From Nitrospirales bacterium (lineage in GTDB: Bacteria > Nitrospirota > Nitrospiria > Nitrospirales > UBA8639), in the NCBI GenBank assembly GCA_965223295.1, contig CBDCWC010000003.1, positions 1,504,001-1,568,000 of the forward strand: DNA of 64,000 nucleotides. The letters are read 5' to 3'. Shown one piece after another: positions 30,520-53,472 of the stretch (positions are counted from its first letter, which is position 1; each line of letters begins with the position of its first letter). Below the pieces are notes generated by a model that ran no database searches, was not told where the DNA came from, and saw only the letters and a program-made list of their open reading frames with translations. The translations under genes and the position numbers were made by a program.

Positions 30520-30720
30520 CAAGGAAAGGGCTCTCGTGCCGAAACGTCATAGCATCGCGCATGAACTGGCGCAGAACTTTCTCAATCACATCCCTGTCTG
30601 GCACAAGCTGACCATCCTGGGCTTTCTGTTCGTCGATCCCATCTTGCTGCTTTTGGCTGGCCTATTTGTGACCGGTGGGTGCTTATCTTGGAGTTTATCT
30701 TCACCCCCGCCATGGTCTAC
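30520..30720 (+). pseudogene. nhaB: Truncated, frameshifted copy of the nhaB 5' end
   Basis: Matches the RBS and first codons of the intact nhaB at 59893; has a 1-nt frameshift and an 81-bp internal deletion. Confidence 0.9.
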
Positions 30721-30941
30721 TATTCGGAGTATGGAAATGAGTGGGTTGATCTGAAACTCGGGAAAAAACTAGCCATTATATGAAAACTGAGACACTTGGA
30801 AAATAACTCAATTGAAGTCATGGACAAGAACGAAGTCAATATCTTACCTTCACAGTGCTGCAGTTGCTCAAATGATCGGACCTGTATCTTCATGATGTCC
30901 TATCCATTTCTTCAGTGGCATGTGAGGAACTTTTACAGGGT

Positions 30942-32861
30942 ATGAGTAAATTTTTCTTCAATCTTCCTATTGCCAAAAAACTTCTTTTTGTCTCGGCCGT
31001 TCCTATTCTGGCAGTGTTGATATTAAGTCTGGTGACCTATAAAAGTGTGGAGACGTTTTCTCTTGATGAAGATCATCTCAATGAGGTCTATCATATTCAA
31101 AGTGCCTCAGCAGAATATATGCGATTGGTTGTAGATCTTGAAACTGGATTTCGAGGGTATGTGCTTACCGAGCAAGTTCAGTTTTTGCAGCCATATCAAG
31201 CGGCCAAACAACGGGTGTTAGCTTTGGGAAATTCTCTCCGACAAATGGTCGCGTCTGATCCTGTGCAACATAAATTGATTAAATCTGTTCAAAATAATAT
31301 TCATCTGTTGATGACGGACAAGGATCGTCTTATTGAACGGGTAAAAGTGGGACATCCTGAGGAAGCTCGAGAATATATTGAAGCAGAAAAAGGGCGGTTG
31401 CTCATGTTGGCCATTCGTGAAGAGATGGCCAGATTTGATCGTAATGAGATTGAGCAGTTACAACATGCATTAGACAATAGTGCTCAGGATCGTTCAGTGC
31501 TCATGAGCGTTGTGGTAGGTGGGGGTGCGTTGGCCTTGATTTTGATGCTTCTCCCTTTACAACTCATAGCACGATCAATTACGGGACCCTTAACGACCTT
31601 GGTGAAGACGGTAGAAAATTTTTCCGGTGGCCGGATGCCGTCAGTTCCTATTCTGAACAGAAGCGATGAAATTGGAGAGTTGACTCGCGTGATGAATACG
31701 ATGGGCACTCAGATTGATCAGCATATCCAACAAATCCAGAAGTCAGAACAGGAGCTGCGTATCCTGAATCAGGACATTACCTCGTCCGAGGCAAAGTATC
31801 GCGGTATTGTTGATCATGCACCAATTGGGATATTTACCGTCGAGCAGGGTCGTGTGATTTTTAGTAATCGCCAGAATTGGATACTGGCTGGACGAGACCC
31901 CGACCATGTTTTAGACCCGGAACACATATGGGATGCCGTACATCCTGATGATCGGGGAGATGTTCAACGTGTCTTTCATGATGCGCGAAAAGAAGGAGAG
32001 CCATTCGAGCGGGTATTCAGGTTTTTACATCCTGATGGAGCAGTGCGGCGGGTCTTAAGCCGGGCGGTACCTATTAATGATGAATCGGGACGGACGATGG
32101 TGTATCAGGGATTTAATGTGGATATCACGGCTTTAGAGCAAATGCGGGCGCAGTTAAGCCGATCAGAACGGTTGGCCACATTAGGACAAGTCGCGGCGGG
32201 TATCGCCCATGAAATTCGGAATCCCCTTGTAGGAATTGGTTCTACCGCTTCTTTGTTAATCGAAGAGTTTGAAGAAGGGGATTCTCGGTGGGAGGATTTG
32301 ACGATTATCTTAAAGGAAACACGGCGTCTGGATCGTATCGTGAATCAAATTGTCGACTATGCACGTCCGAGAGAGTTTATTCCCGTGACTTTTCAACTCG
32401 AGGACTTATTGAACGAATCTCTTCAAGTCCTATCGAAGCCGATTGAAGAAAAGGCTATTCAAGTTTCTCATGTGTTTCCAGATGATCTCTGTGCACTTCA
32501 AGCCGATAGGGACCAATTGAAACAGGTAATCTTGAATATCTTGCAGAATGCCATTGAAGCAATGCCAGAAGCAGGAACCTTACAGGTCTCTATCCATGAA
32601 GAGCCATATGAGCATGAGCCAGGTCTTCGATTGAAGGTTGAAGACTCGGGGAAAGGGATTGACCCGAATGTTCTTTCACGAATTTTTGAGCCATTTTTTA
32701 CGACCGGAAAATATCGAGGAACCGGCTTAGGGTTAGCCATCTGTCGCAATATCATTGAAGCGCATGGAGGGGAGATTTATGCCGAGAGTCAACTGCAGGT
32801 TGGGACGACGGTTTCGATATGGCTTCCCTGCGTCTGCCAGCCACAACTATCTATGGTGTAA
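30942..32861 (+). CDS. Sensor histidine kinase, CHASE3-HAMP-PAS-HisKA-HATPase
   Basis: DLETGFRGY (CHASE3), DEIGEL (HAMP), VHPDD (PAS), AHEIRNPL, and N/G/F boxes including GTGLGL. Confidence 0.93.
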   Translation: MSKFFFNLPIAKKLLFVSAVPILAVLILSLVTYKSVETFSLDEDHLNEVYHIQSASAEYMRLVVDLETGFRGYVLTEQVQFLQPYQAAKQRVLALGNSLRQMVASDPVQHKLIKSVQNNIHLLMTDKDRLIERVKVGHPEEAREYIEAEKGRLLMLAIREEMARFDRNEIEQLQHALDNSAQDRSVLMSVVVGGGALALILMLLPLQLIARSITGPLTTLVKTVENFSGGRMPSVPILNRSDEIGELTRVMNTMGTQIDQHIQQIQKSEQELRILNQDITSSEAKYRGIVDHAPIGIFTVEQGRVIFSNRQNWILAGRDPDHVLDPEHIWDAVHPDDRGDVQRVFHDARKEGEPFERVFRFLHPDGAVRRVLSRAVPINDESGRTMVYQGFNVDITALEQMRAQLSRSERLATLGQVAAGIAHEIRNPLVGIGSTASLLIEEFEEGDSRWEDLTIILKETRRLDRIVNQIVDYARPREFIPVTFQLEDLLNESLQVLSKPIEEKAIQVSHVFPDDLCALQADRDQLKQVILNILQNAIEAMPEAGTLQVSIHEEPYEHEPGLRLKVEDSGKGIDPNVLSRIFEPFFTTGKYRGTGLGLAICRNIIEAHGGEIYAESQLQVGTTVSIWLPCVCQPQLSMV

Positions 32862-32863
32862 CG

Positions 32864-34252
32864 ATGCGGGCAACAATTTTTGTGACAGATGATGATGAAG
32901 TCGTGCGTCAGGCTATTACCCGACGCTTGGCTAAACGTCAACATGACATACGCGGTTTTGATTCTGGCGAAGCTTTATTGGAAGCTCTTGATCACGATAT
33001 GCCTGACATCATTTTTCTAGATTTGAAAATGATTGGGTTGAGCGGGCTAGAAACACTAAAGCAGGTGCGCTCAAAAACACAGCAAGCCTTGGTCATTTTA
33101 CTCACGGCCTATGGCACGGTTGAAAATGCCGTGGAGGCTATGCGCCTGGGTGCCTATGATTTTCTCATTAAAAGCGTGGATTTGTCAGGAGTGGATCCGG
33201 TAATCGATCGAGCGTTGGAATACCTGACATTGCGTCGTCGTGTCGACTTTGAAACACAAGACCGGCCGGGGCGGTATTCTTTAGAAAGTGTCGTATCCAA
33301 TAGTCCCAGCATGAAGGAATTAGTCGGGCAAGTTCAGGAAATGGCGCAAAACCTTAAAACCACGGTGTTGTTATTTGGAGAAACAGGAACGGGTAAGGAA
33401 TTCGTTGCACGTGTGCTGCACCATAATGGCCCCAGGGCGCAGGGGCCTTTTGTTGGAGTAAATTGTACGGCCATTCCGCAAGAGTTATTTGAAAGCGAGT
33501 TGTTTGGCTATGAGCGGGGCGCATTTACGGGAGCGCATCAACGGAAACCGGGGTTGTGTGAACAAGCTGAAGGTGGCACCCTGTTTCTTGATGAAATTGG
33601 CGATTTAAACCCTGCGATGCAAGCAAAATTGCTTCGGGTTTTACAAGAACGGTCATTTAAACGTTTGGGGGGGCGTCAAGACATTGATGTTGATTTCCGT
33701 CTCGTTGCGGCCACGAATCGCGATCTTCGAAAAGAAGTGGCACAAGGGAATTTTCGAGAAGATCTGTTTTTTCGATTGAATGTTGTCTCGCTAGATCTTC
33801 CCCCGTTGCGTCAACGCGTCGAAGATATCATTCCTCTCGGCTTGCAGACATTGGTTCGGCATAGCCAAGACTTGGGAAAAGATGTCACGGCGATCGATCC
33901 CGACGCACAGCAATTTTTAGAGCGGTATCAGTATCCAGGTAATATACGGGAATTGCAAAATATCATTGAACGGGCTGTCATCTTTTGCCGGGGAAAAAGT
34001 TTGACGAGTGGAGACTTGCCCCGGGAAGTTCATGAAGCCGCGCAGTCTTCCGTCAATGTTGTGACACAGGGCGACCAACCTGTTGTGCGCATCGAAATGA
34101 AACTGGGCGAACAATCGCTGGGGGATATTGAAAATACGTTGATCGAGGAAGTCATGCGCGTCTCGGATTTTAATAAAAGTTTAGCGGCGAAACATTTAGG
34201 TATTACACGATTTGCTCTCGACCGCCGTCTCAAAAAACAGGCGGATGCATGA
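32864..34252 (+). CDS. Sigma54-dependent NtrC-family response regulator (intact)
   Basis: REC domain; GETGTGKE, ESELFG, GAFTGA, FLDEIG, FREDLFFRL, YPGNIREL; Fis-type HTH. Confidence 0.95.
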   Translation: MRATIFVTDDDEVVRQAITRRLAKRQHDIRGFDSGEALLEALDHDMPDIIFLDLKMIGLSGLETLKQVRSKTQQALVILLTAYGTVENAVEAMRLGAYDFLIKSVDLSGVDPVIDRALEYLTLRRRVDFETQDRPGRYSLESVVSNSPSMKELVGQVQEMAQNLKTTVLLFGETGTGKEFVARVLHHNGPRAQGPFVGVNCTAIPQELFESELFGYERGAFTGAHQRKPGLCEQAEGGTLFLDEIGDLNPAMQAKLLRVLQERSFKRLGGRQDIDVDFRLVAATNRDLRKEVAQGNFREDLFFRLNVVSLDLPPLRQRVEDIIPLGLQTLVRHSQDLGKDVTAIDPDAQQFLERYQYPGNIRELQNIIERAVIFCRGKSLTSGDLPREVHEAAQSSVNVVTQGDQPVVRIEMKLGEQSLGDIENTLIEEVMRVSDFNKSLAAKHLGITRFALDRRLKKQADA

Positions 34253-40436: not shown

Positions 40437-40695
40437 GATGAAATCCCGGGAATAGGTGAACTGTCTTTATTCCCTTTCGGTTGGGATTGTTGTTTAGTGT
40501 AGGAGGAATCTCTGGAGTTGTTAATTATTGGACCTTTTCCCAGTGACGGAAATATAAAAAGGTAGCCTCACAATGAGGAATCAAGAAATCCTGCGTGATT
40601 CCTGAGAGGCAGAGAGTAGTTTATTAGGAGGGAATAATTGTCATTCATCCCTCGCAAACGGAACTCTAAGTTACAAGGAAGACGAGGATAGTGAG

Positions 40696-41373
40696 TTAGT
40701 TATTCTCGAAGGCTTGGCGAGTGGCAAAGACTTCCCCTGGATGGATCAACAACAAGCAGTCTCCATCAACGGGATCTTTGTGAAACAGCGCGAAGGCAAG
40801 GCAAAGCTGCGGCGTCGGTTCCGGGGGAAACTCTAAAAGTACGGGAACATCAATTAGGGGTGTGGGCTCCTTCAGACTGGCCAGGCGAAGTCGCACGGCA
40901 ACTAAGGTCTGGCGGATGCGGGTGTGAATGTGTTGTTCGGTAAGATCTGGAGAGGAAGTAATGTATTGCTCCCAGAGCGGATTCGTCATGCCTACACAAA
41001 AGTCTAAGCCGATACTTTGCGCCGATGGAGTCACATCTTTAAGAATCCCGGATTCGATGGCCTCTCGTCGTATGCGAATGGTGAACTGTTTCAGGTCTGG
41101 TGGGATTTCTTGAGCGTTCACCGAATCGGGAGTTGTCAATTCCAATACGCTATCGGAAGAAGAGTCTTCTCTATGGTCAATCAAAGCGGGCAATTCAGGT
41201 AGGGAAGGATCCTCTGAGACAGGAAGTTCAGAGGGGTCATTGCCAAGGGCTTGTATGATGCCTTCATAAACGGATTTGGCAGAAGCGGTCCAATTTTCAT
41301 CTTGAGGCAATCCACGAAAAGCGGCTTCTGAGGCCTTCTTTTCGTCATGCGTTAAAGGGCGTGGTGATATCAT
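40696..41373 (-). CDS. Hypothetical protein
   Basis: 225 aa ORF; two folded-looking segments joined by an acidic linker. Confidence 0.7.
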   Translation of the reverse strand: MISPRPLTHDEKKASEAAFRGLPQDENWTASAKSVYEGIIQALGNDPSELPVSEDPSLPELPALIDHREDSSSDSVLELTTPDSVNAQEIPPDLKQFTIRIRREAIESGILKDVTPSAQSIGLDFCVGMTNPLWEQYITSSPDLTEQHIHTRIRQTLVAVRLRLASLKEPTPLIDVPVLLEFPPEPTPQLCLAFALFHKDPVDGDCLLLIHPGEVFATRQAFENN

Positions 41374-41458
41374 ACTTACAAGGTAAGTTAATTTGACAGA
41401 AAGTCAAGTATTACCAATGAATTATTAATAAAAGTAAGTAAGTAGCCTTCTTCCTTGT

Positions 41459-41496
41459 GAGCGAAATCGCACTTTCATCACAGAGCGAAAACGCTC
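41459..41496. promoter_or_regulatory. Tandem enhancer pair D
   Basis: GAGCGAAATCGCAC (41459) and GAGCGAAAACGCTC (41483), 24 bp apart, followed by an AT-rich spacer. Confidence 0.78.
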
Positions 41497-41604
41497 TTTT
41501 TTATAATATCCACCATAAATATATAGAAAATAGTTGCATGAAAATTGTTAAATTATATAAATATTTCAATTGTTTATGTGTTTATTTACGACACAATTAA
41601 ATAT

Positions 41605-41620
41605 TGGAATATAATTTGCA
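41605..41620 (+). promoter_or_regulatory. Sigma54 promoter upstream of the micropeptide and the sulP-dabA-mrp cluster
   Basis: TGGAAT-ATAAT-TTGCA. Confidence 0.75.
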
Positions 41621-41663
41621 GAATAATCATTGTATTACGTTAATTTATTGTAAGGAGCAAACA

Positions 41664-41735
41664 ATGGATCCACTTTTTGATTTAGCCATGATCGCCGTAG
41701 TTGCCATTATGGTTGGTTTTAATATTTACGGGTAA
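41664..41735 (+). CDS. Putative 23-aa TM micropeptide MDPLFDLAMIAVVAIMVGFNIYG
   Basis: TAAGGAG RBS; directly behind the sigma54 promoter; followed by the hairpin ATTTCTCTT/AAGAGAAAT. Confidence 0.65.
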   Translation: MDPLFDLAMIAVVAIMVGFNIYG

Positions 41736-42143
41736 TTAACCTTCTTTCATTTCTCTTGTAGTAAAAAGAGAAATTGAGGCGGTGTTGATCCGGGATCCCT
41801 CCCCAGTTTCTTCCATTCTTCAGGTCCTCTCTTCAAATCAAAGTGTTTCTACGTAATTAAAACTTCATAAGATCAAGGTTTTTAAGGAATTTTTTCTAAA
41901 ATTTCTTGAGGTCGCCCACTCCCTCCTGGTATATCTCTTTGACATCTCAAGGAGTTACGTAAAGCCGATAGCTTAAAGTTAGAGGTTTTTCAAAAATTCC
42001 ATTTCCCTTAAACAGTATGGGTTCTATCCAAATTATCGAGTGACTGACTCTCAGGAAGAAAAAAGGGGTCGGTGTCAATGCAAGCCGGTTTGTGTTGCTG
42101 GAAAGTGCTCCGGTAACTGGGACCGGCTTTGTTGTATAAGGTT

Positions 42144-42390
42144 CTGTTGAAAAAAGCTGCCGCCTACTCCGCCGGAGTCACTGGATGGGCTACGAAGGCC
42201 GGGAGCGGCGTTCCTGCCTTCGCCGGGCCTCCTTCGCCGTAGTGGCTATGAAGGCTGAAAGCGGCTTCGCGTTTACGCGCAGGAGCGCTTCACCGCGCAG
42301 GCGAGCGGACTTTTTTAAAAGACCCGAGGCCTCTGACATGTGAAACCGCAGAGGCTAAATGTGGCCATTGATATCATCATTATTCAACAG
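42144..42390 (+). mobile_element. MITE-like repeat, family A, copy 7 (several nested modules)
   Basis: ctgttgaaaaaagctgccgcc ... tattcaacag; longest copy. Confidence 0.8.
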
Positions 42391-42519
42391 CCCCATTAAG
42401 AGTTGTCCACAAACAACAAAATGCTGTTGAAATTTGCGCGAAAGAGACTTCCGGCATCAGTTGGCTGATATCAAAATAATATAGGGCGATCCTTCTTCAT
42501 CAGTTTCTCAAATCCCATC

Positions 42520-44157
42520 ATGACCTCAAGCGAAAAGGACATTCCTAGAGGGCAGATTTCAGAATTCCCGAAACACTGGCAGGCGGATATGGTTTCGGGG
42601 TTTTTGGTTTTTTTGATCGCGCTTCCGCTGTGCTTGGGGATTTCTTTAGCCTGTGGCTACCCTGCGATTTCCGGGATTTTTACGGCGATAATTGGTGGGG
42701 TGCTGGCCACTTTTTTCAGTAACTCTGAGCTCACGATTAAAGGGCCGGCCGCGGGGCTCATTGTTATCGCTCTGGGATGTGTGACGGAATTTGGGTTTAC
42801 AGGTGGGGAAGACCCTGCTGCTGATCTTCAGGCCTATCGCTTGGCTCTTGGTGTTGGTGTCGCAGCTGGACTGATCCAAATTCTATTTGGAATAGGTCGG
42901 GCGGGAATTCTGGGGGAGTTTTTCCCGACTTCGGCGGTGCATGGCCTGCTCACTGCTATTGGCGTCATCATTATGGCCAAACAATTTCCGGTGGCCATGG
43001 GCCTGAGTCCTGCAGGAACGCCTTTGGAACTGCTGGCCAACATTCCACATTTTATTCTGAACATGAATCCCCTGGTCGGTGTGATTGGCGTGGTGAGTCT
43101 GGTCATCATGTTTGGGTATCCGTTTCTGAAGAACTCTCGGTTGACCGCCATCCCAGCGCCAATGCTGGTGTTATGTATCACAGTGCCTTTAGCTATGTAT
43201 TTCAATATTGGAGGCGAGCAGACGTATTCCTTCCAAGGACAGGACTATCCATTAGGAAAGAATTTTCTCGTGGCGGTTCCGGAGAATATGTTTCATGCTC
43301 TCACCTTCCCTGACTTTTCTGGTCTCGGCACAACGATAGGAATAAAATATGTGATCATGTTTGCTTTAATAGGGAGTATCGAATCTCTTCTCAGCGCCAA
43401 GGCGATTGATGAAATTGATCCGTGGAAAAGAAAAACGGATCATGATCGAGATATGCTCGCGGTGGGAGTTGGGAATACCCTTGCCTCGTTTGTGGGTGGT
43501 CTTCCCATGATTTCGGAAATCGTTCGCAGCAAGGCCAATATTGATAATGGGGCACGGACTCGATTTGCGAATATGTTTCACGGCCTGTTTCTCCTGGGGT
43601 TTGTGGCACTCATCCCGGGCCTCATCAATCAGATTCCCCTTGCGGCCCTTGGAGCCATGCTTGTCTTTACGGGGTTCCGACTAGCGTCTCCTCAAGAATT
43701 TGTCCACATGTGGCAAGTTGGACGTGAGCAATTTATTATTTTTGTCTCAACGGTCATTGGCGTCTTGTCGACTGATTTGCTGATGGGAATCGCGATTGGC
43801 ATTGGTGTAAATTTTTTGGTGCATCTGAAGAATGGAGCGCCTCCTAAGTCACTTCTGAAGACACAAGTTACGGTGGGACGGCAGGAAAAGGAAGGCGTTG
43901 TTGTTCGAGTCAAAGATTCGGCTATTTTTAGTACATGGATCGGTCTGAAAAAAACATTAGAACCCTTAGTGACAGAATCTCGCGTGATCCTGGATTTATC
44001 CGATACGGCTCTCGTTGACCACACGGTTATGTCTAAACTTCAAGATATGGAAAAGACCTTTCAGGAACATGGATCGACCCTAGTCCTTGTGGGATTAGAG
44101 CAGCATCAGCGACTGTCTGATCATCCTGCCGCAGCGAGAAAAAAGGTGCGAACATAG
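42520..44157 (+). CDS. SulP/SLC26 anion transporter (second subfamily)
   Basis: GFLVFLIALPLCLGIS, IKGPAAGL, IESLLSA and GGLPMISEIVRS; short STAS-like tail. Confidence 0.92.
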   Translation: MTSSEKDIPRGQISEFPKHWQADMVSGFLVFLIALPLCLGISLACGYPAISGIFTAIIGGVLATFFSNSELTIKGPAAGLIVIALGCVTEFGFTGGEDPAADLQAYRLALGVGVAAGLIQILFGIGRAGILGEFFPTSAVHGLLTAIGVIIMAKQFPVAMGLSPAGTPLELLANIPHFILNMNPLVGVIGVVSLVIMFGYPFLKNSRLTAIPAPMLVLCITVPLAMYFNIGGEQTYSFQGQDYPLGKNFLVAVPENMFHALTFPDFSGLGTTIGIKYVIMFALIGSIESLLSAKAIDEIDPWKRKTDHDRDMLAVGVGNTLASFVGGLPMISEIVRSKANIDNGARTRFANMFHGLFLLGFVALIPGLINQIPLAALGAMLVFTGFRLASPQEFVHMWQVGREQFIIFVSTVIGVLSTDLLMGIAIGIGVNFLVHLKNGAPPKSLLKTQVTVGRQEKEGVVVRVKDSAIFSTWIGLKKTLEPLVTESRVILDLSDTALVDHTVMSKLQDMEKTFQEHGSTLVLVGLEQHQRLSDHPAAARKKVRT

Positions 44158-44160: not shown

Positions 44161-47100
44161 ATGAAAGATTCGATGACGGTTGAATCAGTGAGACAAGAGG
44201 TTTCTCCTTTGACCCAAGAAGAACGGAAAATGCTTGGTGCTGTCATTGAATCGGCCAGTGAGCCCATCGCCCCGTTTTGGCCCATGCGGACTATGGTGGC
44301 TCAAAACCCCATTCATGGCTTGGAATATCTTTCATTTGATGAGGCGGTTCGACAGGGCAAAGATCTTCTTGGAGGCAATGGTTATCTGCCGAATGAAGAA
44401 TATCGGCAATTCTATTTGGAAGGGCGAATCACTCTCGAAAGTATTCAACGGGCATTAATCCCCGTAGGACCTCGGCCCCAATCACAAGAACCGATCACGA
44501 TCGGAACGCGTCAATTTTCTCCTCAAGATATTTGGAAATGGCATCTGGTTCGCGGCTTCGAGGAGTTGGAACCTGTCCTCTTGCAATGGGAGCTCAGTGG
44601 ACGAGGAGCCATTGAGGAATTTCGTTCAGACTTTCCCAGTGAAGCCAAACATCGGATTATCCAACGAACGATTAAGGAATGTGAGCATTGTCGAGACTTT
44701 CCCGAAAAGGCCTATTTAACAAATCTATGGAATGCCACCTTATTTACATTAGGTCTTCATGATTCTATCTCGGAAGAAAAGACTGATCATGCCTCTGCTC
44801 AAAAAGAATTTTCTGCCCGTGCCATAGAAGAATCACCACTCGTCATTGATTTACCCGTTCGGCGAACGATGAGTGATTGGATCGAATGCTTGAGTAGTGT
44901 TCCTTTGGTCGAACAGATCAATCACCAAATGATTAAGTGGATTGCCGCTTTTGTTGACGAGGGGCAAGCAGGTTGGCAAATGCCATTCAGGGAGAAGGGC
45001 TTTTTCCTCGCGTGGCAGGACTTGGCTCAATTGGACTACTCTGGGCACTTCTTGGGGATTACTGACTTTCATCAGAAAGTTCAAGCGTTGCCTCCTGACC
45101 CTGAAGAGGTCATTGCTTTGTGTCTGCGCCGTCTTGGCGTTCCTTACGCACAATGGCAATCGTATCTTGCCCGTGAGCTCTCTCAACTGCCAGGATGGAC
45201 TCGATACATTCGGTGGTTGGGAGAACATCCTCTGTATCATGCTCAACGACAACATCCGATTGACACGAGACAGTATTTGGCGGTTCGACTGTTTTATGAA
45301 GTGGAATTGACTAACATTTGCTGTCGACAAGAATGGGGAATTGATGGAACTGTTTCAGCCATGACGGCATATTGGAAGGACCGATCTGAAGAATATCGCA
45401 ATCGAATAGGAGAAGGAGGGCATTCTATTGATCAAACAGAACGGATGATATGCCGAGACGCCTGGCGATTATTTCATCTCGCACAATTCCTTGAGTTATC
45501 TCCAATTGAAGTCCATGACCTATCACTTGCTGATGCTCAGAAGATGTTGCAATGGCTAGATGAATTTCCTGCTGATCAGCATAGTTCCGTGTGGCTTGAA
45601 GCCTATGAAGAATCGTTTCGGGCAGACATCCTAAGCAAGATCTCCGCGCATCGGGAGACCGTTCCAGCCTTAACGTCTCGTCCTCATGCGCAATTGGTCT
45701 TTTGTATCGATGTACGCTCTGAATCATTTCGCCGTCATATTGAAGCCCAAGGTCCTTACGAAACGTTCGGGTTCGCGGGGTTTTTTGGCATACCTCTGAG
45801 CCATCAAGTCTTTGATAGTGATCAGCGTTCCTTCTTGTGCCCTGTACTACTTACTCCTAACCATGCCGTCATGGAAATACCCCGATCTGGAGAGGAAACG
45901 GCGTTAGAAAAGTATTCTTCTGGTACTCGCTGGCATCAGCTGGGGCATCATTTCTTTCATGATCTGAAACATCATCCTATTGGGTCTATGATGGCAATTG
46001 ATGTGCTAGGACTCTTTTTTAGTCTGGGGTTGGTGGGAAAAACCCTATTCCAAAAAACATTTCAGGGGATTACCTCGAGCATCGAGCGTTGGTTCACCTA
46101 TAGAGTGCCGACTCAAATCGCGGTTTGCGCTCCCGTCGATCAGAAGAACCCAAAAGTCGGAGAAGTGCATGCAGAAGGGGTTCCCGTGGGTCTCGCTCAG
46201 GGGTTTTCTTTGGCAGAACGAGCCACCTTTATCGAAAACGGCTTACGCGCCATGGGACTTTCACAGAATTATGCGCGGCTCGTGTGCCTCTGTGGCCATG
46301 GCAGTGAGACAGACAACAATCCCTATTATGGCGCATTGGATTGTGGGGCCTGTGGAGGAGCACCCGGAGATGCGAATGCGCGGGTCTTTGCTGCAATGGC
46401 GAATGATCCTCAGGTTCGGCGTATCTTGAAACAAAATGGGTTGCCCATTCCAGACGATACGTGGTTCCTTCCTGGGAAACATAACACGACAACTGATCGA
46501 GTCGAGTTTTACGATCTAGAAGAATTACCTGGTACACATATTGAAGATTTGCGTGCGTTGAACAAAGATCTAGAAGCAGCTGGTGCGAATCAAGCCCTTG
46601 AACGTTGCCATCGCATTCCACGTGCCCCGGAAGAGATTTCTCCAGAGCAGGCCTTTGCTCATGTCATGGAGCGCAGTTGCGATTGGGCCAACCCTCGACC
46701 GGAATGGGGGTTAGCTGGGAATGGCGCCTTTCTTATCGGGAGACGGAAGCTGACGAAAGGTTTGGATTTAGGCGGTCGTGTGTTTTTGCATTCGTATGAT
46801 CCTCTTGCTGATCCCGAGGGAGCCATCCTTGAAAAAATCATGACCGCACCCTTAATTGTCGGCGAATGGATTAGCACCGGCTATTACTTTTCCGCTGTGG
46901 ATCCATGGACCTATGGCAGTGGTAGTAAAGTCTTGCACAATGTGGTTGGTGGTGTTGGAATGATGTTGGGAAGCCAAAGTGATTTGCAAATGGGCTTTCC
47001 TTTACAAACGGTGAATAACGGAGACGTTCACTATCACGAACCCATGCGGCTACTCGCCATCATTGAACATAAGCCGAGTGTGATCTCGTCTATCATTCAA

Positions 47101-47226
47101 AAACATGCGATCCTTCAGCGGCTATTTCATAACCAGTGGTTAAATCTTGTTGCGATCGATCCCCACACCTTTGCGTTTCATCGCTATTTTCCTGATGGCC
47201 AGTGGGAAGCTGTCACTCACAACTGA
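44161..47226 (+). CDS. dabA: DabA (DUF2309/UPF0753) inorganic-carbon pump, beta-CA-like subunit
   Basis: IAPFWP, FCIDVRSE, FAGFFG, GHGS, LDCGACGG, RPEWGL, LHSYD and HEPMRL motifs. Confidence 0.95.
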   Translation: MKDSMTVESVRQEVSPLTQEERKMLGAVIESASEPIAPFWPMRTMVAQNPIHGLEYLSFDEAVRQGKDLLGGNGYLPNEEYRQFYLEGRITLESIQRALIPVGPRPQSQEPITIGTRQFSPQDIWKWHLVRGFEELEPVLLQWELSGRGAIEEFRSDFPSEAKHRIIQRTIKECEHCRDFPEKAYLTNLWNATLFTLGLHDSISEEKTDHASAQKEFSARAIEESPLVIDLPVRRTMSDWIECLSSVPLVEQINHQMIKWIAAFVDEGQAGWQMPFREKGFFLAWQDLAQLDYSGHFLGITDFHQKVQALPPDPEEVIALCLRRLGVPYAQWQSYLARELSQLPGWTRYIRWLGEHPLYHAQRQHPIDTRQYLAVRLFYEVELTNICCRQEWGIDGTVSAMTAYWKDRSEEYRNRIGEGGHSIDQTERMICRDAWRLFHLAQFLELSPIEVHDLSLADAQKMLQWLDEFPADQHSSVWLEAYEESFRADILSKISAHRETVPALTSRPHAQLVFCIDVRSESFRRHIEAQGPYETFGFAGFFGIPLSHQVFDSDQRSFLCPVLLTPNHAVMEIPRSGEETALEKYSSGTRWHQLGHHFFHDLKHHPIGSMMAIDVLGLFFSLGLVGKTLFQKTFQGITSSIERWFTYRVPTQIAVCAPVDQKNPKVGEVHAEGVPVGLAQGFSLAERATFIENGLRAMGLSQNYARLVCLCGHGSETDNNPYYGALDCGACGGAPGDANARVFAAMANDPQVRRILKQNGLPIPDDTWFLPGKHNTTTDRVEFYDLEELPGTHIEDLRALNKDLEAAGANQALERCHRIPRAPEEISPEQAFAHVMERSCDWANPRPEWGLAGNGAFLIGRRKLTKGLDLGGRVFLHSYDPLADPEGAILEKIMTAPLIVGEWISTGYYFSAVDPWTYGSGSKVLHNVVGGVGMMLGSQSDLQMGFPLQTVNNGDVHYHEPMRLLAIIEHKPSVISSIIQKHAILQRLFHNQWLNLVAIDPHTFAFHRYFPDGQWEAVTHN

Positions 47227-47430
47227 GCAGACTAAGGCGATATGTGGTGAGGAAGAAATGTCGCACCGATAAAAGAACGAAAATTCTTTTAGGAATGCCG
47301 GATTAAATTTTATCCGCGCTAATAAACTGGTAGCTGTACAATCTCACTAGAACCGTCTAGATGATTTTTCGCTGAATTCCTTTCAGCTTCCATAAGATTT
47401 CGGGATAAGGGAATGAATGGTGCTACATAA

Positions 47431-47958
47431 ATGACAAGCAAGGGTTTTTCTCCAGGGGCCCGCCCTAGACCGATTTCCTCACAATTCTTGATACTAAAGA
47501 CCACGGCACTCTTTGTGTTGTGGATCATGTTATCTGCAAGTTTCGACTGGATCCATCTTGGATTGGGTTTGGTTCTCTCGTTTGCGGTAGCGTGGGTGAA
47601 CTCTGGCCACTCTCCCTTTGTTCCCAAATTTCGATTGTGGGGTAACATCATTCTCTATCTCCCTTGGCTTTTTGTGAAAATCGTCCAAAGCAGTCTTCAT
47701 CTATCAAAGCTCATTCTTCACCCCGCGCTTCCCATTAATCCTAGGTTGATCCACGTGGAGACGCAATTGGGACATCATGCAGCAGTTGTGCTTCTTGGTA
47801 ATTCCATTACGTTGACTCCTGGAACGATCACCGCGGAAGTTGAACGTAATACGCTCATTGTTCACGCCATGGATGAAGTTTCAGCGCAGGATGTCACAAG
47901 TAAGCGGATCGAATCCAAAATTGCTGCAATTTTTAAAGATGAAAAGCCGGATCTATGA
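47431..47958 (+). CDS. mrpE: Mrp Na+/H+ antiporter subunit E (start may be later)
   Basis: NSITLTPGT...VHA motif. Confidence 0.9.
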   Translation: MTSKGFSPGARPRPISSQFLILKTTALFVLWIMLSASFDWIHLGLGLVLSFAVAWVNSGHSPFVPKFRLWGNIILYLPWLFVKIVQSSLHLSKLILHPALPINPRLIHVETQLGHHAAVVLLGNSITLTPGTITAEVERNTLIVHAMDEVSAQDVTSKRIESKIAAIFKDEKPDL

Positions 47959-48221
47959 AAGTATTTCTGCTCTGTGTTTTGATCTTATTGGCTTTACTCA
48001 TTGGTTCGTATTTGTATCGTGTGCTTCAGGGGCCCACGATTTTTGATCGTGTATTGGGTCTCAATGGCATTTCTACCAAGGCGATTATTCTCTTGATTGT
48101 GATGGGTATGTACTTTGAGCGAATCGACATGTTTATCGATATCTCGACTGGGTATGCCCTATTGAATCTGGTGGGAGCTCTTGCCGTCGCAAAATTTCTG
48201 GAACAAAGAGGACTACCCTAG
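47955..48221 (+). CDS. mrpF: Mrp subunit F
   Basis: RVLQGPTIFDRV motif; 3 TM helices. Confidence 0.9.
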   Translation: MKVFLLCVLILLALLIGSYLYRVLQGPTIFDRVLGLNGISTKAIILLIVMGMYFERIDMFIDISTGYALLNLVGALAVAKFLEQRGLP

Positions 48222-48222
48222 C

Positions 48223-48522
48223 ATGGAAGTGACTGCTATCTCCTGTATTCTGGCTGGATTATTTTTCTTGATTGTTGCGGCGATTGGGGTGATTCGTCTG
48301 CCCGATGTGTTTAGTCGTTCTCACGCCGTTTCGCTTACAGACTCGTTAGGTGCCTTTCTGATGTTAGTGGGCATTGCGCTTCATGAGGGCCTGAGTACGA
48401 GTACCCTGAAAATTATTGCAGTCTTGGCATTACTCTATATTCAAAATCCGGTTATTGCCCATGCGACGGTTCGCGCCGCGATGCGAGCTGGCCTCAAACC
48501 GTGGAAACGAGAGACCTCATGA
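48223..48522 (+). CDS. mrpG: Mrp subunit G
   Basis: GVIRLPDVFSRSHA...DSLG...NPVIAHA; start at ATG 48223. Confidence 0.9.
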   Translation: MEVTAISCILAGLFFLIVAAIGVIRLPDVFSRSHAVSLTDSLGAFLMLVGIALHEGLSTSTLKIIAVLALLYIQNPVIAHATVRAAMRAGLKPWKRETS

Positions 48523-49049
48523 CCTTTTCGTATGAAATCCCCTTGCTCGTTCTTCTCCTTGCCACCGCAGCCGGTGCCATATTAGTCAAAGATCTCATCA
48601 GTGCGATCTTGCTCTTGGGGTCTTATAGTTTTTTTCTGGCCTTGGTATGGGCTTGGTTAGGAGCGGTGGATGTGGCGTTTGTCGAAGCAGTTGTTGGAGC
48701 TGGGTTAGCCACCGTGCTTTTTTTGCTCACCCTGTTTGGAACCGCACCAAAAGACAATCGTCTTAGGCGGCCACCACCGCCCATGGCAGCATTAATTGCT
48801 CTTCCACTGTTAGGCCTTCTCTTGCTCTATGCAGCAAACGATCTTCCTGAGTTTGGAGATCCATATTCTCCTGCAAGTGTTCATATTTCGCCGACCTATC
48901 TCGAACAGAGTTATGCGGATACTCATACACCAAATGTTGTGACCTCGGTGCTGATGGATTACCGCTCGCTCGATACGATGGTGGAAACCGTGGTGATTTT
49001 TACGGCAGGTATTGCCTGTGCCCTTTTGTTGAGGAGACAAACCTCATGA
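48519..49049 (+). CDS. DUF4040 plus MbhE-like subunit (stand-alone MrpA C-terminal part)
   Basis: A.DVAFVEAVVGAG and PNVVTSVLMDYRSLDTMVE motifs. Confidence 0.88.
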   Translation: MTFSYEIPLLVLLLATAAGAILVKDLISAILLLGSYSFFLALVWAWLGAVDVAFVEAVVGAGLATVLFLLTLFGTAPKDNRLRRPPPPMAALIALPLLGLLLLYAANDLPEFGDPYSPASVHISPTYLEQSYADTHTPNVVTSVLMDYRSLDTMVETVVIFTAGIACALLLRRQTS

Positions 49050-49498
49050 TTCAACCTCACGATAGTATCATTGTTCAGACCTTGGGACGTTTTCTCATTC
49101 CGGTAATCCAAATTTTTGGGCTGTACGTGTTGTTTTTCGGCCAATACGGTCCTGGTGGAGGATTTGTTGGAGGAGTGATCTTAGGGACGGGTATGATTTT
49201 ATCAGTGTTGATTTTTGGCCATGATGCATCTCGGAGTCAGGTGGCGAAAAAAGTATTGCACGGTGATGGAGTCGGCATGTTGATTTATGCTGGGGTGGGA
49301 GGCTTATGTATGATTGGGGGTGGAGAGTTTCTCAATTATGCCAATCTGGAGATTCCAGGGCTTGAGACAGCATCCCGCCGGTCATTGGGAATCATCTTGA
49401 CGCAAATTGGTGTGGCTGTGGATGTGGCTGTTACGGCGGTCTCCATTGTGTTCAGTCTTTCTGCTGAAGAAATTATGGAGGATTCGATGAATGGGTGA
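49046..49498 (+). CDS. mrpB: Mrp subunit B (MnhB)
   Basis: GPGGGFVGG motif. Confidence 0.88.
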   Translation: MIQPHDSIIVQTLGRFLIPVIQIFGLYVLFFGQYGPGGGFVGGVILGTGMILSVLIFGHDASRSQVAKKVLHGDGVGMLIYAGVGGLCMIGGGEFLNYANLEIPGLETASRRSLGIILTQIGVAVDVAVTAVSIVFSLSAEEIMEDSMNG

Positions 49499-49868
49499 TC
49501 TCTTTTCCGCCGTCTTTCAGCGTCCTAACTTTTTGACGTTTGTCATTATTTTCCTGTGGGGCTTTTATATCATGGTGACACGATATAACCTCGTCAAGAA
49601 ACTGGTCGGTTTGTATCTGGTGCAAACCAGCGTAATTTTTTTTCTGGTATCTATTAGTGCGAAGAAACACTCAACCGCTCCCGTTCTTCTGTCTACCACT
49701 GAAACCGTGCAAGCTATGAACTATGCGAATCCGTTGCCACATGTGCTGACGTTGACGGCTATTGTGGTTGGTGTCGCTACCTTGGGTGTGGCCTTGGCCT
49801 TGTGTGCTGCGATCTATCGACGATACGGCAGTCTTGATGAAGAAGAAATTCTAAAAAAATTAGAATGA
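49491..49868 (+). CDS. mrpC: Mrp subunit C
   Basis: NLVKKLVG and NPLPHVLTLTAIVVG motifs. Confidence 0.92.
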   Translation: MGDLFSAVFQRPNFLTFVIIFLWGFYIMVTRYNLVKKLVGLYLVQTSVIFFLVSISAKKHSTAPVLLSTTETVQAMNYANPLPHVLTLTAIVVGVATLGVALALCAAIYRRYGSLDEEEILKKLE

Positions 49869-51334
49869 CTCATCACTTTCCAGCCATTCTGTTTCTGCTC
49901 CCTTTGTTTGCGGCGATTTCCATGCCAGTGGTTTGTTTGAAACACCGAGAATGGAGTCGGCCTATCTCTCTGGCTGTACTCGGGGCTATGGTTGTGGTCT
50001 CCATTCTGAATCTCATCAGTGTCATCAATCACGGAGAAGTGCGATATGCCTTTAGTGGCTGGACTGCACCATTAGGCATTGAGTGGGTCGCAGATGGTTT
50101 AGCGAGCGTAATCCTTATGACATTGAGTCTCTTGGGTTTGCTGGCGTTGGTCTTTACCGGGCCTACTTCACCAAAAGATCTTGGTGGACGAATTGTTCAT
50201 TATTACATCTTGATCTTGCTGCTAATTTCCGCGCTCACTGGAATTGTGTTTGCAGGAGATTTATTTAATCTATTCGTATTTTTAGAAGTCGCAGCCATAT
50301 CCAGTTATGCACTCATTGGCGTGGCTGGAGGCAGAGCTCTATTCGCCGCTTTTCGTTATCTCGTGTTGGGAACGCTTGGGGCTTCCCTCTATTTATTAGG
50401 GGTGAGTTATTTCTACGCGGCCAGTGGGACGCTCAATATGGCAGATATGGCTCAGAAACTCCCCCAATTATTGACCTCGAAAGCTGTGGTCGGCGGGCTT
50501 CTTTTTATGTTCATAGGATTAGGCATCAAAATGGCTTTGGTGCCGTTCCATGCATGGCTGCCGGACGCCTACACGTATGCTCCGGAATCAATATCTCCTA
50601 TTTTGGCGGCATTGGTCACCAAGGTGGCATTATTAGGATGGGTCCGCATAATTTACTGGGTTCTGGGTGCCAAGGCCATCGTCTACGACATTCCTGTGCT
50701 CTTACTCGTGGGGATACTGGGCACTCTGGCGGCGGTCATTGGTGCGGTTCTCGCCCTGTCTCAGCGAAACATTAAAATGATGTTTGCCTATGGGGGGATT
50801 TCTCACATTGGCATCATTCTTATTGGCGTGAGTCAGGGTAACCATACAGGATTTGTGGGGGGTGTCTTCTATTTACTGAACGATGCAGTTATGCAAGCAG
50901 CATTGTTTTTTTTAGCAGGGGTAGCCATTTGCCAGTATGGCGTTCGGACCGTAGAAGATATTGGGCAAATTGGGAGACAAGCGCCTTGGTTTACGGGGGC
51001 TTTGGTGGTCGTGGCGCTAGGTATGATAGGCCTTCCTCCGACTGGGGGATTTTTTGGAAAATGGTATATCATTCTTGGAGCACTTGAAGCGAACAATTAC
51101 ATCGCAGTCGCCGCAGTTTTACTCTCGACTCTCCTGACGCTTGCCTATTTCGTGAAACTATTTGAGGCGATCTTTCGTCAACCAGCAACTCAATCGGAGA
51201 TGCTTCCAGGGGAGATTCCTTTCCCTTATAAACTGAGTGTGGGGATGACAGCCGCGGCCGTGATGATCTTAGGTCTGTTGAGTGACCCCATTGTTCAGTT
51301 TTTATTGAACCAGGCATTGCCACCCGGTATTTGA
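49865..51334 (+). CDS. mrpD: Mrp subunit D (antiporter-like)
   Basis: GDLFNLFVFLEV, KMALVPFHAWLPDAY and GLPPTGGFFGKW motifs. Confidence 0.92.
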   Translation: MTHHFPAILFLLPLFAAISMPVVCLKHREWSRPISLAVLGAMVVVSILNLISVINHGEVRYAFSGWTAPLGIEWVADGLASVILMTLSLLGLLALVFTGPTSPKDLGGRIVHYYILILLLISALTGIVFAGDLFNLFVFLEVAAISSYALIGVAGGRALFAAFRYLVLGTLGASLYLLGVSYFYAASGTLNMADMAQKLPQLLTSKAVVGGLLFMFIGLGIKMALVPFHAWLPDAYTYAPESISPILAALVTKVALLGWVRIIYWVLGAKAIVYDIPVLLLVGILGTLAAVIGAVLALSQRNIKMMFAYGGISHIGIILIGVSQGNHTGFVGGVFYLLNDAVMQAALFFLAGVAICQYGVRTVEDIGQIGRQAPWFTGALVVVALGMIGLPPTGGFFGKWYIILGALEANNYIAVAAVLLSTLLTLAYFVKLFEAIFRQPATQSEMLPGEIPFPYKLSVGMTAAAVMILGLLSDPIVQFLLNQALPPGI

Positions 51335-51342
51335 AGGAAGCT

Positions 51343-53439
51343 ATGGCTATCTTTGTTTTGATTCCTTTGCTCCCTCTCCTTGCCTCGGTTCTCCTTCTTC
51401 TTGGAGGACGGCGATGGGGTGAGCAAAGTCACCGGATCGGAATTCCTGCTATAGGCCTGTCGTTTGGTTTGTCAGTGCTCGCTTTTCTTGAGGTCTTGCG
51501 TAACGGGCCTTTCTCTCTCTCTCTTTATCGTTTCTTTCAGTCTGGATCGTTATCCATTGACTTAGGTTTGTTTGTTGATCAACTCACCGTCCTGCTTTTG
51601 CTCTTGGTCACAGGGGTGAGTGGTGTGGTGCATGTGTATTCTTCCCGGTACATGATTGGAGACCCACGATACAACCGATTCTTTGCGGTCATCGCGTTGT
51701 TTACCTTTTCTATGGTGTTGCTTGTCATGAGTAACAACCTGTTGATGTTGTTGGTCAGTTGGGAAATTATGGGGATCTGTTCGTATCTCTTGATTTCCCA
51801 TGCCGCACAGCGACCCTCGGCAGGTCGGGCAGCGACCAAGGCGTTTTTGGTCAATGCGGTGGCGGATGTCGGGCTCAGTTTCGGAATTATTTTGACGTTT
51901 TTCACATTCGGCACGCTTGACATCCAAACTATCCTCACTGAGGCCGAAAGCATGCAGCATCAGAGGATCAATATTCTGGGATGGATGGGAGGAAATCTCC
52001 TCGTCAATCCAGTAACGCTTATTCCTTTCTTTTTATTCATCGGGGCTATGGGTAAGTCAGCTCAAATGCCGTTTCATATATGGTTGCCGTTTGCCATGGA
52101 AGCCCCCACTCCGGTGTCGGCATTGATTCACGCGGCGACCATGGTAAACGCCGGTCCGTTCCTGCTTGTGCGATTGAGCCCCTTGCTCGTCCTTTCTCCG
52201 TTCACTATGACCTTCATTGCGGTCATTGGAGCCACTACTGCGCTGTTCGCTGGTATTGTTTCCCTGACGCAGTCTGACATTAAAAAGATTTTGGCATATT
52301 CCACGATTAGCCAAATTGGTTTCATGATTATGACCTGCGGTTTAGGTGCATTCGTCGTGACGATTTTTCACCTGCTTGCTCATGGTTGTTATAAAGCGTT
52401 CTTCTTTCTTTCAACGGGGAATGCGCTTCGATCCGTCGCTCAAGGTCATGCCCATAGAGAGCAGGAGTATCATGCACCTCAAGGTATGGGCGTGTTGTAT
52501 GGTGGTGCGCTGTTATTGGCGTTGATTCCTCCGATTATTCTGTTTTCAGGTGCGTATGAAAACTTGTGGGGAGTGATGGGATTTGCTTCTGCCACAATTG
52601 GATTCCGCGTCATTGGTCTGATCACAGTGTTTGTGGCTTCTATGTATCTCTTCCGAAGCGTCACGTCGTTATTTGTTCATGGTCCAAAGACATATTGGCC
52701 GGTATCAGGCCAATCGGCGTTGCAGACACAATCCATTCGACCACAGTTTGTGAATGGTTCGATAATGGTTGGTCTTCTCATTGTCACGGTGATCGTAGGA
52801 GTAGCATTGACGCTGTTTTGGAGTTGGTTTGTCAGCTTCCTTGCTCCCGCATTAGCCCTTGCTGGTGTTGCGACGAATGAAGGAACGGTTGGGATCGGTT
52901 TCTCGATTTGGCTTCTGGGGGCTATTGGGATGGCCATTTCGGGATGGGTTTGTGCGTATTCGTGCGCTCAACCTGGCTCGCAAGTTGTCTGGTCAACTAG
53001 TAAAAACACAAGGTTATACATGCTCTTCTGGAATAAATGTTATTTTGATGAATTTTATGATGCCTATTTAGTGAACCCGACCATTCGATTTTCCCATTGG
53101 CTCTGGCACATGATTGATGTTGGGGTCATCGATAGATTCATACATTCCATCGCAACCTATTCCATTCTCTTTGCACGTTGGCTCTGGCGGATTGTGGATA
53201 TCAAAGGTATTGATCGAATGGTGATGGGTATTGGACGACAGAGCGTTGGTATGAGTGGATGGCTTTGGAAAGTGGTGGATATTCGATGGTTGGAAAAGAC
53301 AGTCAGTCAAGTGGGTAGCCAAGCAGATACGGCAGGGCAATTATTGCAAGAGGTCGAACCTCGTACCATTCAACATCAATTACTCGTCATGATACTTTGG
53401 CTGGTCTTGGCAACCGGACTATTATATATCTTGGTTTAA
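51343..53439 (+). CDS. NuoL/DabB-like proton-translocating subunit with an extended lateral helix
   Basis: WEIMG, GKSAQMPFHIWLPFAMEAPTPVSALIHAA and HLLAHGCYKAFFFL; NuoL-type tail NK.YFDE.Y with three WLW..D...ID units. Confidence 0.88.
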   Translation: MAIFVLIPLLPLLASVLLLLGGRRWGEQSHRIGIPAIGLSFGLSVLAFLEVLRNGPFSLSLYRFFQSGSLSIDLGLFVDQLTVLLLLLVTGVSGVVHVYSSRYMIGDPRYNRFFAVIALFTFSMVLLVMSNNLLMLLVSWEIMGICSYLLISHAAQRPSAGRAATKAFLVNAVADVGLSFGIILTFFTFGTLDIQTILTEAESMQHQRINILGWMGGNLLVNPVTLIPFFLFIGAMGKSAQMPFHIWLPFAMEAPTPVSALIHAATMVNAGPFLLVRLSPLLVLSPFTMTFIAVIGATTALFAGIVSLTQSDIKKILAYSTISQIGFMIMTCGLGAFVVTIFHLLAHGCYKAFFFLSTGNALRSVAQGHAHREQEYHAPQGMGVLYGGALLLALIPPIILFSGAYENLWGVMGFASATIGFRVIGLITVFVASMYLFRSVTSLFVHGPKTYWPVSGQSALQTQSIRPQFVNGSIMVGLLIVTVIVGVALTLFWSWFVSFLAPALALAGVATNEGTVGIGFSIWLLGAIGMAISGWVCAYSCAQPGSQVVWSTSKNTRLYMLFWNKCYFDEFYDAYLVNPTIRFSHWLWHMIDVGVIDRFIHSIATYSILFARWLWRIVDIKGIDRMVMGIGRQSVGMSGWLWKVVDIRWLEKTVSQVGSQADTAGQLLQEVEPRTIQHQLLVMILWLVLATGLLYILV
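53089..53331 (+). repeat. Three tandem 81-bp / 27-aa intragenic repeats
   Basis: FSHWLWHMIDVGVIDR... / FARWLWRIVDIKGIDR... / MSGWLWKVVDIRWLEK... starting at 53089, 53170 and 53251. Confidence 0.85.
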
Positions 53440-53472
53440 CCATCTGTTTCTTAAAGAATAAAGATTAAACAT

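Follow-up and report, generated by a model that had tools for sequence, protein, structure and literature searches.

Four very small bacterial gene products, TnaC, MgrB, AcrZ and KdpF, and the BicA-type SulP transporters of marine nitrite oxidisers are the described systems closest to the locus considered here. The locus is built around an unannotated reading frame of 23 codons, at positions 41664-41735 on the plus strand of a 64,000-nucleotide stretch from a Nitrospirales bacterium (contig CBDCWC010000003.1, positions 1,504,001 to 1,568,000), hereafter the window. It stands upstream of sulP, which encodes an SLC26/SulP permease, and of the dabA and mrp/mnh-type genes. An earlier note, made from the letters of the window without database searches, had taken the frame for a membrane micropeptide and the first product of the promoter ahead of the DabA-Mrp cluster, which would act either as an accessory or regulatory protein of the transporter complex or as a leader peptide controlling read-through.

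TnaC is the leader peptide of the tna operon, 24 amino acids (aa) long, whose stop codon is followed by a long spacer that is not translated and by C-rich sequence. The present peptide is similar in length and is likewise followed by a long untranslated spacer with a C-rich stretch past the stop; however, it is a hydrophobic helix selected over its full length, its paralogues are long-tailed, and the hairpin behind it is not conserved across genera. MgrB, of 47 aa, has periplasmic cysteines and is expressed from a sigma70 promoter. The peptide described here, in contrast, lacks cysteines and would hardly extend beyond the membrane, and it is lost along with sulP while the kinase gene stays. 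What the two have in common is the kind of control: a two-component system induces MgrB, the small membrane protein that inhibits PhoQ by feedback, according to passages of a review from 2025 on small membrane proteins of bacteria (PMC12648545), and at the present locus a syntenic kinase/activator pair is the likely inducer. AcrZ (49 aa), the AcrB modulator, appears in passages of the same review as a single-helix partner by which a transporter is tuned, co-regulated but not essential (PMC12648545). This likeness agrees with related SulP genes working without the peptide, whereas AcrZ differs in being encoded away from acrAB and has no homology to the peptide. KdpF (29 aa), the product of the first kdpFABC cistron, is a tiny single-helix peptide encoded ahead of transporter genes and induced with them, and it stabilises its complex, as stated in a passage of that review (PMC12648545). 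It has no sequence relation to the present peptide, which moreover has its own sigma54 promoter and stands 784 nucleotides (nt) before sulP, with a promoter-like element and a leader ending in a terminator in between. The BicA-type transporters resemble this locus in that its neighbour gene encodes a SulP/STAS permease; five BicA-like SulP genes are reported for N. marina in the relevant part of one genome paper (PMC8115632).

The frame at 41664-41735 is a real, conserved and previously unannotated gene for a hydrophobic single-helix peptide. Our preferred interpretation, to which we give a probability of roughly 45%, is that the peptide is a small membrane protein co-induced with SulP and modulating it in the style of KdpF or AcrZ; this idea leads among the readings and is unproven. 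The gene and its promoter consist of the following features, on the plus strand throughout.

41457-41472, plus strand: upstream activator site 1, palindrome GTGAGCGAAATCGCAC, a presumed site of a bacterial enhancer-binding protein; its core GCG-N4-CGC is present in 14/14 aligned loci.
41482-41497, plus strand: upstream activator site 2, palindrome AGAGCGAAAACGCTCT, kept in 14/14 aligned loci; the long-form paralogues described below are preceded by GAGCGAAATCGCAC, which is nearly the same.
41563-41576, plus strand: site ATTTCAATTGTTTA between enhancer and promoter, resembling sites of the integration host factor (IHF); the block TTCAATnnnTTA is conserved in the alignment, and a like block occurs at the paralogue loci.
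41605-41620, plus strand: sigma54 -24/-12 box TGGAATATAATTTGCA, with GG at 41606-7 and GC at 41618-9, invariant in 14/14 loci.
41651-41657, plus strand: ribosome binding site TAAGGAG, 6 nt 5' of the ATG; GGAG is kept across the aligned loci.
41664-41735, plus strand: small open reading frame (ORF) of 23 codons and TAA (stop at 41733-41735), MDPLFDLAMIAVVAIMVGFNIYG, a single hydrophobic helix.

Compared at the DNA level with 40 relatives, the window has a conserved stretch at positions 41645-42137, with 65-82% identity within the genus, and the core alignment comprises the window and 13 syntenic regions (14 sequences). Every one of these sequences holds the 23-codon frame with identical start and stop, while the two other reading frames over it carry 1-4 stops in each. 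Variable sites number 7, 6 and 19 at codon positions 1, 2 and 3, and over the 91 pairs the mean proportion of nonsynonymous differences (pN) is 0.077 against a synonymous one (pS) of 0.673, a ratio of 0.11. More broadly, 58 records contain the frame, of which 27 are distinct; all 27 have 23 codons, and they encode 24 different peptides in four genera of one Nitrospirales family. We regard the frame as a coding gene because start and stop are the same in 27/27 loci, variation concentrates at third positions (19 of 23) and pN/pS is 0.11. The codon-level conservation across syntenic regions that the earlier note had named as one check on its proposal is therefore present, upstream of orthologous clusters in four genera; the TAAGGAG site, the sigma54 box and the frame itself all exist in the sequence as it had listed them, and a gene for a 23-aa hydrophobic micropeptide, presumably of the membrane, is borne out.

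Within the genus M1, D2, P3, F5, D6, A8, M9, I10, V13, V17, F19 and N20 are invariant, and P3, D6, V13 and N20 are constant across genera. The best 19-residue segment has a mean Kyte-Doolittle hydropathy of 2.09, so that by hydropathy the 23-aa product resembles the small single-helix membrane proteins, which have at most 50 residues and one hydrophobic helix. Searched against Pfam and NCBIfam at E up to 10, the peptide has no match, the curated models of named small-protein families (KdpF, AcrZ and others) included. A 43-aa in-frame ORF, which uses an alternative TTG start, has no homologue among 5.8 billion predicted protein clusters. Within the reach of a predicted-protein search, the gene is unannotated in public data.

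The distribution of the peptide was followed in the genus of the window (g1, 50 genomes including the window's own), its family (115 genomes) and its order (401 genomes). A profile search of the 401 genomes found it in 22/50 genomes of g1, 6/7 of g11, 1/1 of g12 and 1/1 of g19. Elsewhere in the order there are chance-level matches only, with E above 0.01, in 1/38 genomes of g8 and 3/260 of family f2. When all prokaryotes were scanned with one genome for each species, 17 loci emerged, every one in a record titled as a Nitrospirales or Nitrospirota metagenome-assembled genome. The host family is probably the marine lineage IV / UBA8639, judging from record titles and from part of one publication (PMC12342949). 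In g1, g11, g12 and g19 the peptide gene lies upstream of sulP, dabA and mnhE; in g19 some 3 kb of other DNA intervene before sulP. In the window the genes concerned are as follows, and the upstream neighbour of the peptide locus is a divergent gene for a 225-aa protein that has no family in Pfam.

42520-44157, plus strand: sulP, an SLC26/SulP permease with a STAS domain (PF00916 and PF01740; weak BicA and DauA NCBIfam matches below cut-off).
44161-54978, plus strand: dabA (1021 aa) and mrp/mnh-type genes (Pfam DabA, MNHE, PhaG_MnhG, MnhB and Proton_antipo_M).

Within the genus, the occurrence of the peptide tracks that of sulP and not that of dabA. DabA is encoded in 48/50 genomes, whereas a SulP orthologue of at least 77% identity is found in 23/50, namely the 22 genomes with the peptide and one further genome (G022) whose contig stops 181 nt upstream of sulP. 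The DabA locus was compared in 12 genus members without the peptide. In 11 of them the same divergent 225-aa gene is followed by about 1.1 kb of unrelated DNA and dabA, without sulP, the peptide or any match to window positions 41374-42140; the twelfth has remnants of sulP only and no peptide. The enhancer, the sigma54 promoter, the peptide gene, a second promoter, a leader and sulP are gained or lost as one block, independently of DabA-Mrp. Across the family, SulP orthologues of at least 76% identity (g1, g11, g12 and g19; 31 genomes) are accompanied by the peptide in 30 genomes. The peptide gene is thus encoded beside the transporter gene and inherited together with it in the genus, with g8, g9 and g10 as exceptions to which we return below. 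The proposal of an accessory protein of the DabA-Mrp cluster holds as far as synteny in four genera is concerned, but not as to the partner, since the occurrence of the peptide (22/50) does not track that of DabA (48/50): it is no DabA-Mrp subunit. SulP is taken as the presumed partner because both subfamilies of the peptide most often precede a SulP gene, the short form is lost with sulP, and DabA-Mrp and the kinase persist without the peptide.

The second subfamily came to light in a genome-wide scan for sigma54 boxes, which led to another module of the same layout at contig 3, position 1080999 on the minus strand.

Contig 3, 1081200-1078763, minus strand (locus L074): paralogous module with enhancer pair, sigma54 box, 61-aa ORF, second SulP and a GAF-domain membrane protein.

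Its palindromes are TGTGCAAGATTGCACA and GAGCAAAATCGCAC, its sigma54 box is TGGAATGCCCTTTGCA, and a ribosome site and the 61-aa ORF follow (MNPIFDLVVIGMIVGMVLLNLYFSR..., MNPIFDL..NLY), 261 nt upstream of the second SulP gene (574 aa). By manual count, 10 of the first 23 residues are identical between the short peptide and this paralogue, while the second SulP shows 24-27% identity to the first (tblastn of both to relatives' copies). About 24 genomes of g1 and g11 encode long forms, 60-74 aa in length, behind the same arrangement of upstream sites. Within a set of 1.84 billion representatives, long forms account for 32 clusters at 50% identity, none with a name; a cluster look-up of 10 divergent members returned no names or taxa. 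The helix is conserved and followed directly by basic residues, whereas the tail of 37-51 residues is variable, with pN/pS of 0.25 for codons 1-25 vs 0.53 for the tail in four close copies. In the ESM Atlas the 61-aa paralogue reached a best score of 0.79 with no named family, and a metagenome scan with the long form yielded 5 loci, all of the same lineage type and without a wider range. Judged by sequence and layout, the short and long forms are one family, confined to some genera of one marine Nitrospirales family and heading inorganic-carbon-uptake genes. Among the 13 long-form loci with sufficient downstream sequence, 7 lead into the second SulP. Between the small ORF and the second sulP at the paralogue loci no conserved element was found. 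A complex prediction for the second SulP (residues 1-410, 40 rows) with the 61-aa paralogue (13 rows) gave a score of 0.00, which speaks neither for nor against binding.

Two observations on the paralogous modules may be added. In one relative (L079:104-1066, minus strand) the gene behind the long-form ORF encodes an LCIB-type beta carbonic anhydrase in place of SulP, which would tie the enhancer-sigma54 module to carbon acquisition more generally. Relatives of the second SulP with about 72% identity are present in records titled Nitrospinota / Nitrospinae (P0054-P0060), which hints that bicarbonate-type transporters have been exchanged between two phyla of marine nitrite oxidisers.

As far as its sequence elements can tell, the peptide gene has a complete enhancer-dependent sigma54 promoter of its own. 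In TGGAATATAATTTGCA GG and GC stand 10 nt apart at -24/-12. Matches to TGGHAY-N5-TTGCW number 4 in the window, where shuffles lead one to expect 0.52, and 0/100 shuffles reach 4. The palindrome pair is located 108-148 nt upstream of the box with the conserved TTCAATnnnTTA in between, an arrangement that matches activator sites paired at about 100-150 nt with a bending site. Only two sites in the 3.78-Mb genome, the peptide locus being one, fit a loosened form of the pair, namely two GCG-N4-CGC with A/T-rich centres and a distance of 18-30 nt. The label IHF-like for 41563-41576 refers to the IHF consensus; an activator would bind the palindromes and IHF the bend site. The enhancer pair of the earlier note is real and conserved, but it lies at 41457-41497, upstream of the segment beginning at 41605 in which it had been placed. 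Sites resembling activator site 1 also precede the paralogue and a third sulP, the latter at a candidate regulator locus of the window (28558-34252, plus strand, from Pfam and sequence reading) with these components.

28558-28573, plus strand: sigma54 box before the third sulP, with GTACGAATTCGCAC resembling an upstream activator site.
28648-30446, plus strand: third sulP (Pfam).
30915-32861, plus strand: CHASE3-HAMP-PAS histidine kinase (Pfam).
32819-34252, plus strand: NtrC-type sigma54 activator (Pfam).

This CHASE3 kinase / sigma54 response-regulator pair, 7-11 kb upstream, is the likely activator of the peptide promoter, to judge by gene content and position. Where compared by coordinate, the kinase gene is about 7-13 kb from the peptide or the leader, and it directly adjoins the peptide in g12 and g19; an orthologue is present in 91/115 family genomes. 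The window contains a second NtrC-type activator gene, judged from its translation, at 24925-26268 on the minus strand. Further exact matches to the sigma54 pattern are at 23145-23160, 24475-24490 (minus strand) and 50239-50254, two of the three just 3' of this second activator gene and one inside an mrp gene. Upstream of the enhancer, the blocks AAGGTAAG and GAAAGTCAAG (41377-41410) are conserved a few bases upstream of the start codon of the divergent 225-aa gene, and they may belong to a leaderless start or an operator.

On the SulP interpretation, the NtrC-type activator would occupy the two palindromes and switch on the sigma54 promoter in response to a signal, plausibly carbon limitation, that the CHASE3 kinase senses. 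The peptide would insert into the membrane post-translationally, after its release, because 23 residues never leave the ribosome tunnel before termination. Its helix might then pack on the membrane domain of the BicA-like SulP by way of the invariant polar P3, D6 and N20, and tune the stability or the activity of SulP in the manner of AcrZ or KdpF. The peptide gene would be a separately controlled upstream unit, and the sigma54 transcript may or may not read through to sulP.

How far the peptide and sulP are transcribed together depends on the 784 bp between them (41736-42519), which contain no ORF of more than 52 aa. The earlier description of about 780 bp without a long ORF, with a hairpin after the frame and a miniature inverted-repeat transposable element (MITE) before sulP, is confirmed, although the hairpin has no U tract. 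The features of this segment are as follows.

41749-41774, plus strand: hairpin ATTTCTCTT/AAGAGAAAT with a 9-bp stem and no U tract, starting 14 nt past the stop.
41780-41837, plus strand: untranslated pyrimidine-rich, G-poor spacer, by its base composition in g1 a putative Rho utilisation (rut)-like site.
41838-41895, plus strand: conserved A/T-rich block GTATTTCTACGTAATTAAAACTTCATAAG..., including TACGTAATTAAAACTTCATAAG (putative regulator site or UP element), the second most conserved intergenic block.
41906-41935, plus strand: sigma70-like promoter TTGAGG, 18 nt, TGgTATATC, in 14/14 loci, with conserved hexamers and a variable spacer of fixed length.
41938-42136, plus strand: structured 5' leader RNA of sulP, about 190 nt, with a terminator stem at 42083-42128 and TTTGTTGT.
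About 42140-42402, no strand assigned: GC-rich MITE-like repeat between the leader terminator and sulP, with inverted arms at 42144-42159 and 42375-42390.

The second promoter of g11 reads TGGTATAAC. Its -10 element ends in C in all relatives, and for that reason it was missed by the strict promoter scan; the segment 41838-41935 is probably a regulated second promoter. The leader behind it has the conserved core GTAGGGT...CAGTACAAGCCGG. RNAalifold on 17 sequences predicts 42 pairs, 18 of them with compensatory change. Alignment cells able to pair amount to 90.9% vs 86.9% in shuffles and 35-52% in slid controls, and 0/500 shuffles reach any of five structure measures, the structure having been predicted on the same alignment as tested, which favours it. 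A covariance model of the leader (R1) has one match in its own genome and is found in 47/115 family genomes, including genera without the peptide (18/38 genomes of g8 and 3/7 of g9). At three g8 loci, 30-40 nt lie between the end of the leader and sulP, and a TTGCTC-17-TACAAT promoter stands upstream of the leader; neither a peptide ORF nor a sigma54 box precedes it in 3/3 of them. Rfam gives no relevant match for 40500-43500 at E up to 1, the sole hit being Transposase-1 at 41567-41622 with 19.6 bits (gathering threshold 42.8). The leader is a candidate for a new cis-regulatory RNA of a bicarbonate-type transporter. The alignment contains no conserved promoter downstream of the leader terminator, and therefore the simplest reading is that sulP is expressed when transcription passes through the leader. 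In the window there is no second R1 leader between dabA and mnhE; weaker matches of the model at that position were seen in g9 and g11 (L096:1515-1676 and L097:6941-7148). As to the MITE-like repeat, a search of the genome with positions 41400-42520 returned 51 matches, the locus itself and 50 copies or pieces of the repeat elsewhere. The repeat is absent at this place in relatives and also occurs in other genus members. The claim that the peptide is the first product of the cluster promoter thus survives in part: the gene has its own sigma54 promoter and is syntenic with the cluster in four genera, but a sigma70-like promoter and a terminator-ended leader intervene before sulP.

These intervening elements are the first of several points that weigh against a SulP modulator. 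Secondly, SulP orthologues of 65-71% identity in g8, g9 and g10 (40 genomes) do without the peptide, with 0/8 genomes of g9 and g10 and one weak match (E 0.02) among 38 genomes of g8; because these 40 genomes have an orthologous SulP and no peptide, the latter is not an obligatory subunit and is a modulator at most. Thirdly, no peptide ORF stands upstream of a 61%-identical SulP on contig 2 or of the third sulP. The co-occurrence within the genus may, moreover, go back to one gain or loss, because related genomes are not independent; it would then count as one observation rather than 27, and the counts overstate independence. Finally, 6/13 long-form loci have no sulP next to them: one precedes an LCIB-type carbonic anhydrase, three an unknown ORF with a CHASE3/HAMP protein, one an oxidoreductase fragment, and one nothing on the same strand. 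The constant of the family is the enhancer-sigma54 module, which heads mostly carbon-uptake genes, and not SulP.

This last point is where the best-surviving alternative begins. The peptide could be a regulon-level small membrane protein that acts on another shared target, most plausibly the CHASE3 kinase itself, as an MgrB-like feedback regulator or signal connector. We consider this unlikely. It would account for the shared enhancer pair and sigma54 promoter of family members whose downstream genes vary, for the synteny of the kinase-regulator pair with the locus (the kinase directly adjoining the peptide in g12 and g19), and for another peptide-like match about 460 nt from the kinase gene in genome G090; small membrane proteins that are induced by a two-component system and act back on its kinase are a known kind, as passages of the small-protein review describe (PMC12648545). 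However, the kinase is far more widespread (91/115 family genomes) than the short peptide (about 30) or the long form (about 24), and within the genus the short form disappears with sulP while the kinase is retained in 46/49 genomes.

A leader-ORF explanation, the second possibility raised by the earlier note, holds that translation or pausing on the frame sets Rho-dependent or structural termination in the 200-nt spacer and hence sigma54 read-through to sulP, as in TnaC. The size of the peptide is about that of TnaC, its stop codon lies 14 nt before a hairpin, the spacer past the stop is C-rich and G-poor, and the transporter gene is far downstream. In 16/18 rows of g1 the spacer has a C content of 0.21-0.32 and a G content of 0.07-0.15 when bounded by the true -10 element; the two rows outside these ranges (C 0.16 and 0.19) were measured on a fixed 125-nt span. 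The hairpin itself is no canonical intrinsic terminator because it has no U tract, and a strict terminator scan did not list it. Hairpins of differing sequence fold in most g1 loci and in none of the 3/3 g11 loci. What disfavours the leader peptide most is the pattern of constraint: amino-acid selection runs along the whole helix and not over a few codons or a C-terminal arrest motif, so that conservation confined to key codons or to an arrest motif next to the stop, coupled to a terminator or rut site, was not found. In the paralogues, 37-51 variable residues are added and the conserved part is already outside the ribosome tunnel at the stop; the basic residues after the helix suit a membrane protein, and one long-form locus has no same-strand gene downstream. 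Taken together, control of read-through by this frame seems quite improbable.

Still less probable is a stand-alone small hydrophobic protein unrelated to carbon uptake, acting in membrane stress or like a type I toxin. Its own promoter, the hairpin after the stop, the separate promoter before sulP and a length and hydrophobicity that resemble those of type I toxins would agree with such a protein. Its position upstream of sulP is nevertheless kept in four genera, it is lost along with sulP in the genus, and paralogues precede the second sulP and a carbonic anhydrase; a strict promoter scan of both strands over 41200-42700 gave no minus-strand site, although no search was aimed at an antisense RNA gene. 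The notion of a chance ORF within a conserved regulatory region can all but be dismissed, for although the frame is very short and the peptide has no database homologue outside the family, variable sites distribute as 7/6/19 over the codon positions with pN/pS of 0.11, and start and stop coincide in 27/27 loci while the other two frames hold 1-4 stops.

A modulator of SulP would be without precedent in the literature searched. Small protein partners of SulP/SLC26, sigma54 control of these genes and a riboswitch before dabA or sulP were not the subject of any paper found, an absence that is no proof that nothing has been published. A term search of the 2025 review (PMC12648545) for SulP, SLC26, bicarbonate and sulfate gave no hit, and no small subunit of SulP is named in the text so covered. 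The main text of the N. marina paper, as far as covered, does not mention a small ORF, sigma54 control or leader RNA (PMC8115632), whereas its Data Set 1, outside that scope, could list small ORFs. It is conceivable, if doubtful, that in this family SLC26/SulP anion transporters have their first dedicated partner among small proteins, placed in a sigma54 two-component carbon-limitation regulon of marine nitrite oxidisers atop an as yet undescribed riboswitch-like leader gating sulP.

Seawater bicarbonate is the source of the carbon that marine Nitrospira-type bacteria of lineage IV fix, and the locus bears on how its uptake is controlled. It brings together, as a concrete circuit, a sensor kinase with a sigma54 activator, a micropeptide, a structured leader RNA and SulP-DabA-Mrp. 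The peptide is missed by gene callers, which points to regulated coding capacity below annotation thresholds. Should the peptide bind SulP, the bacterial SLC26 family would gain its first small subunit within the literature searched, and such a subunit, if true, would be useful for transplanting bicarbonate pumps.

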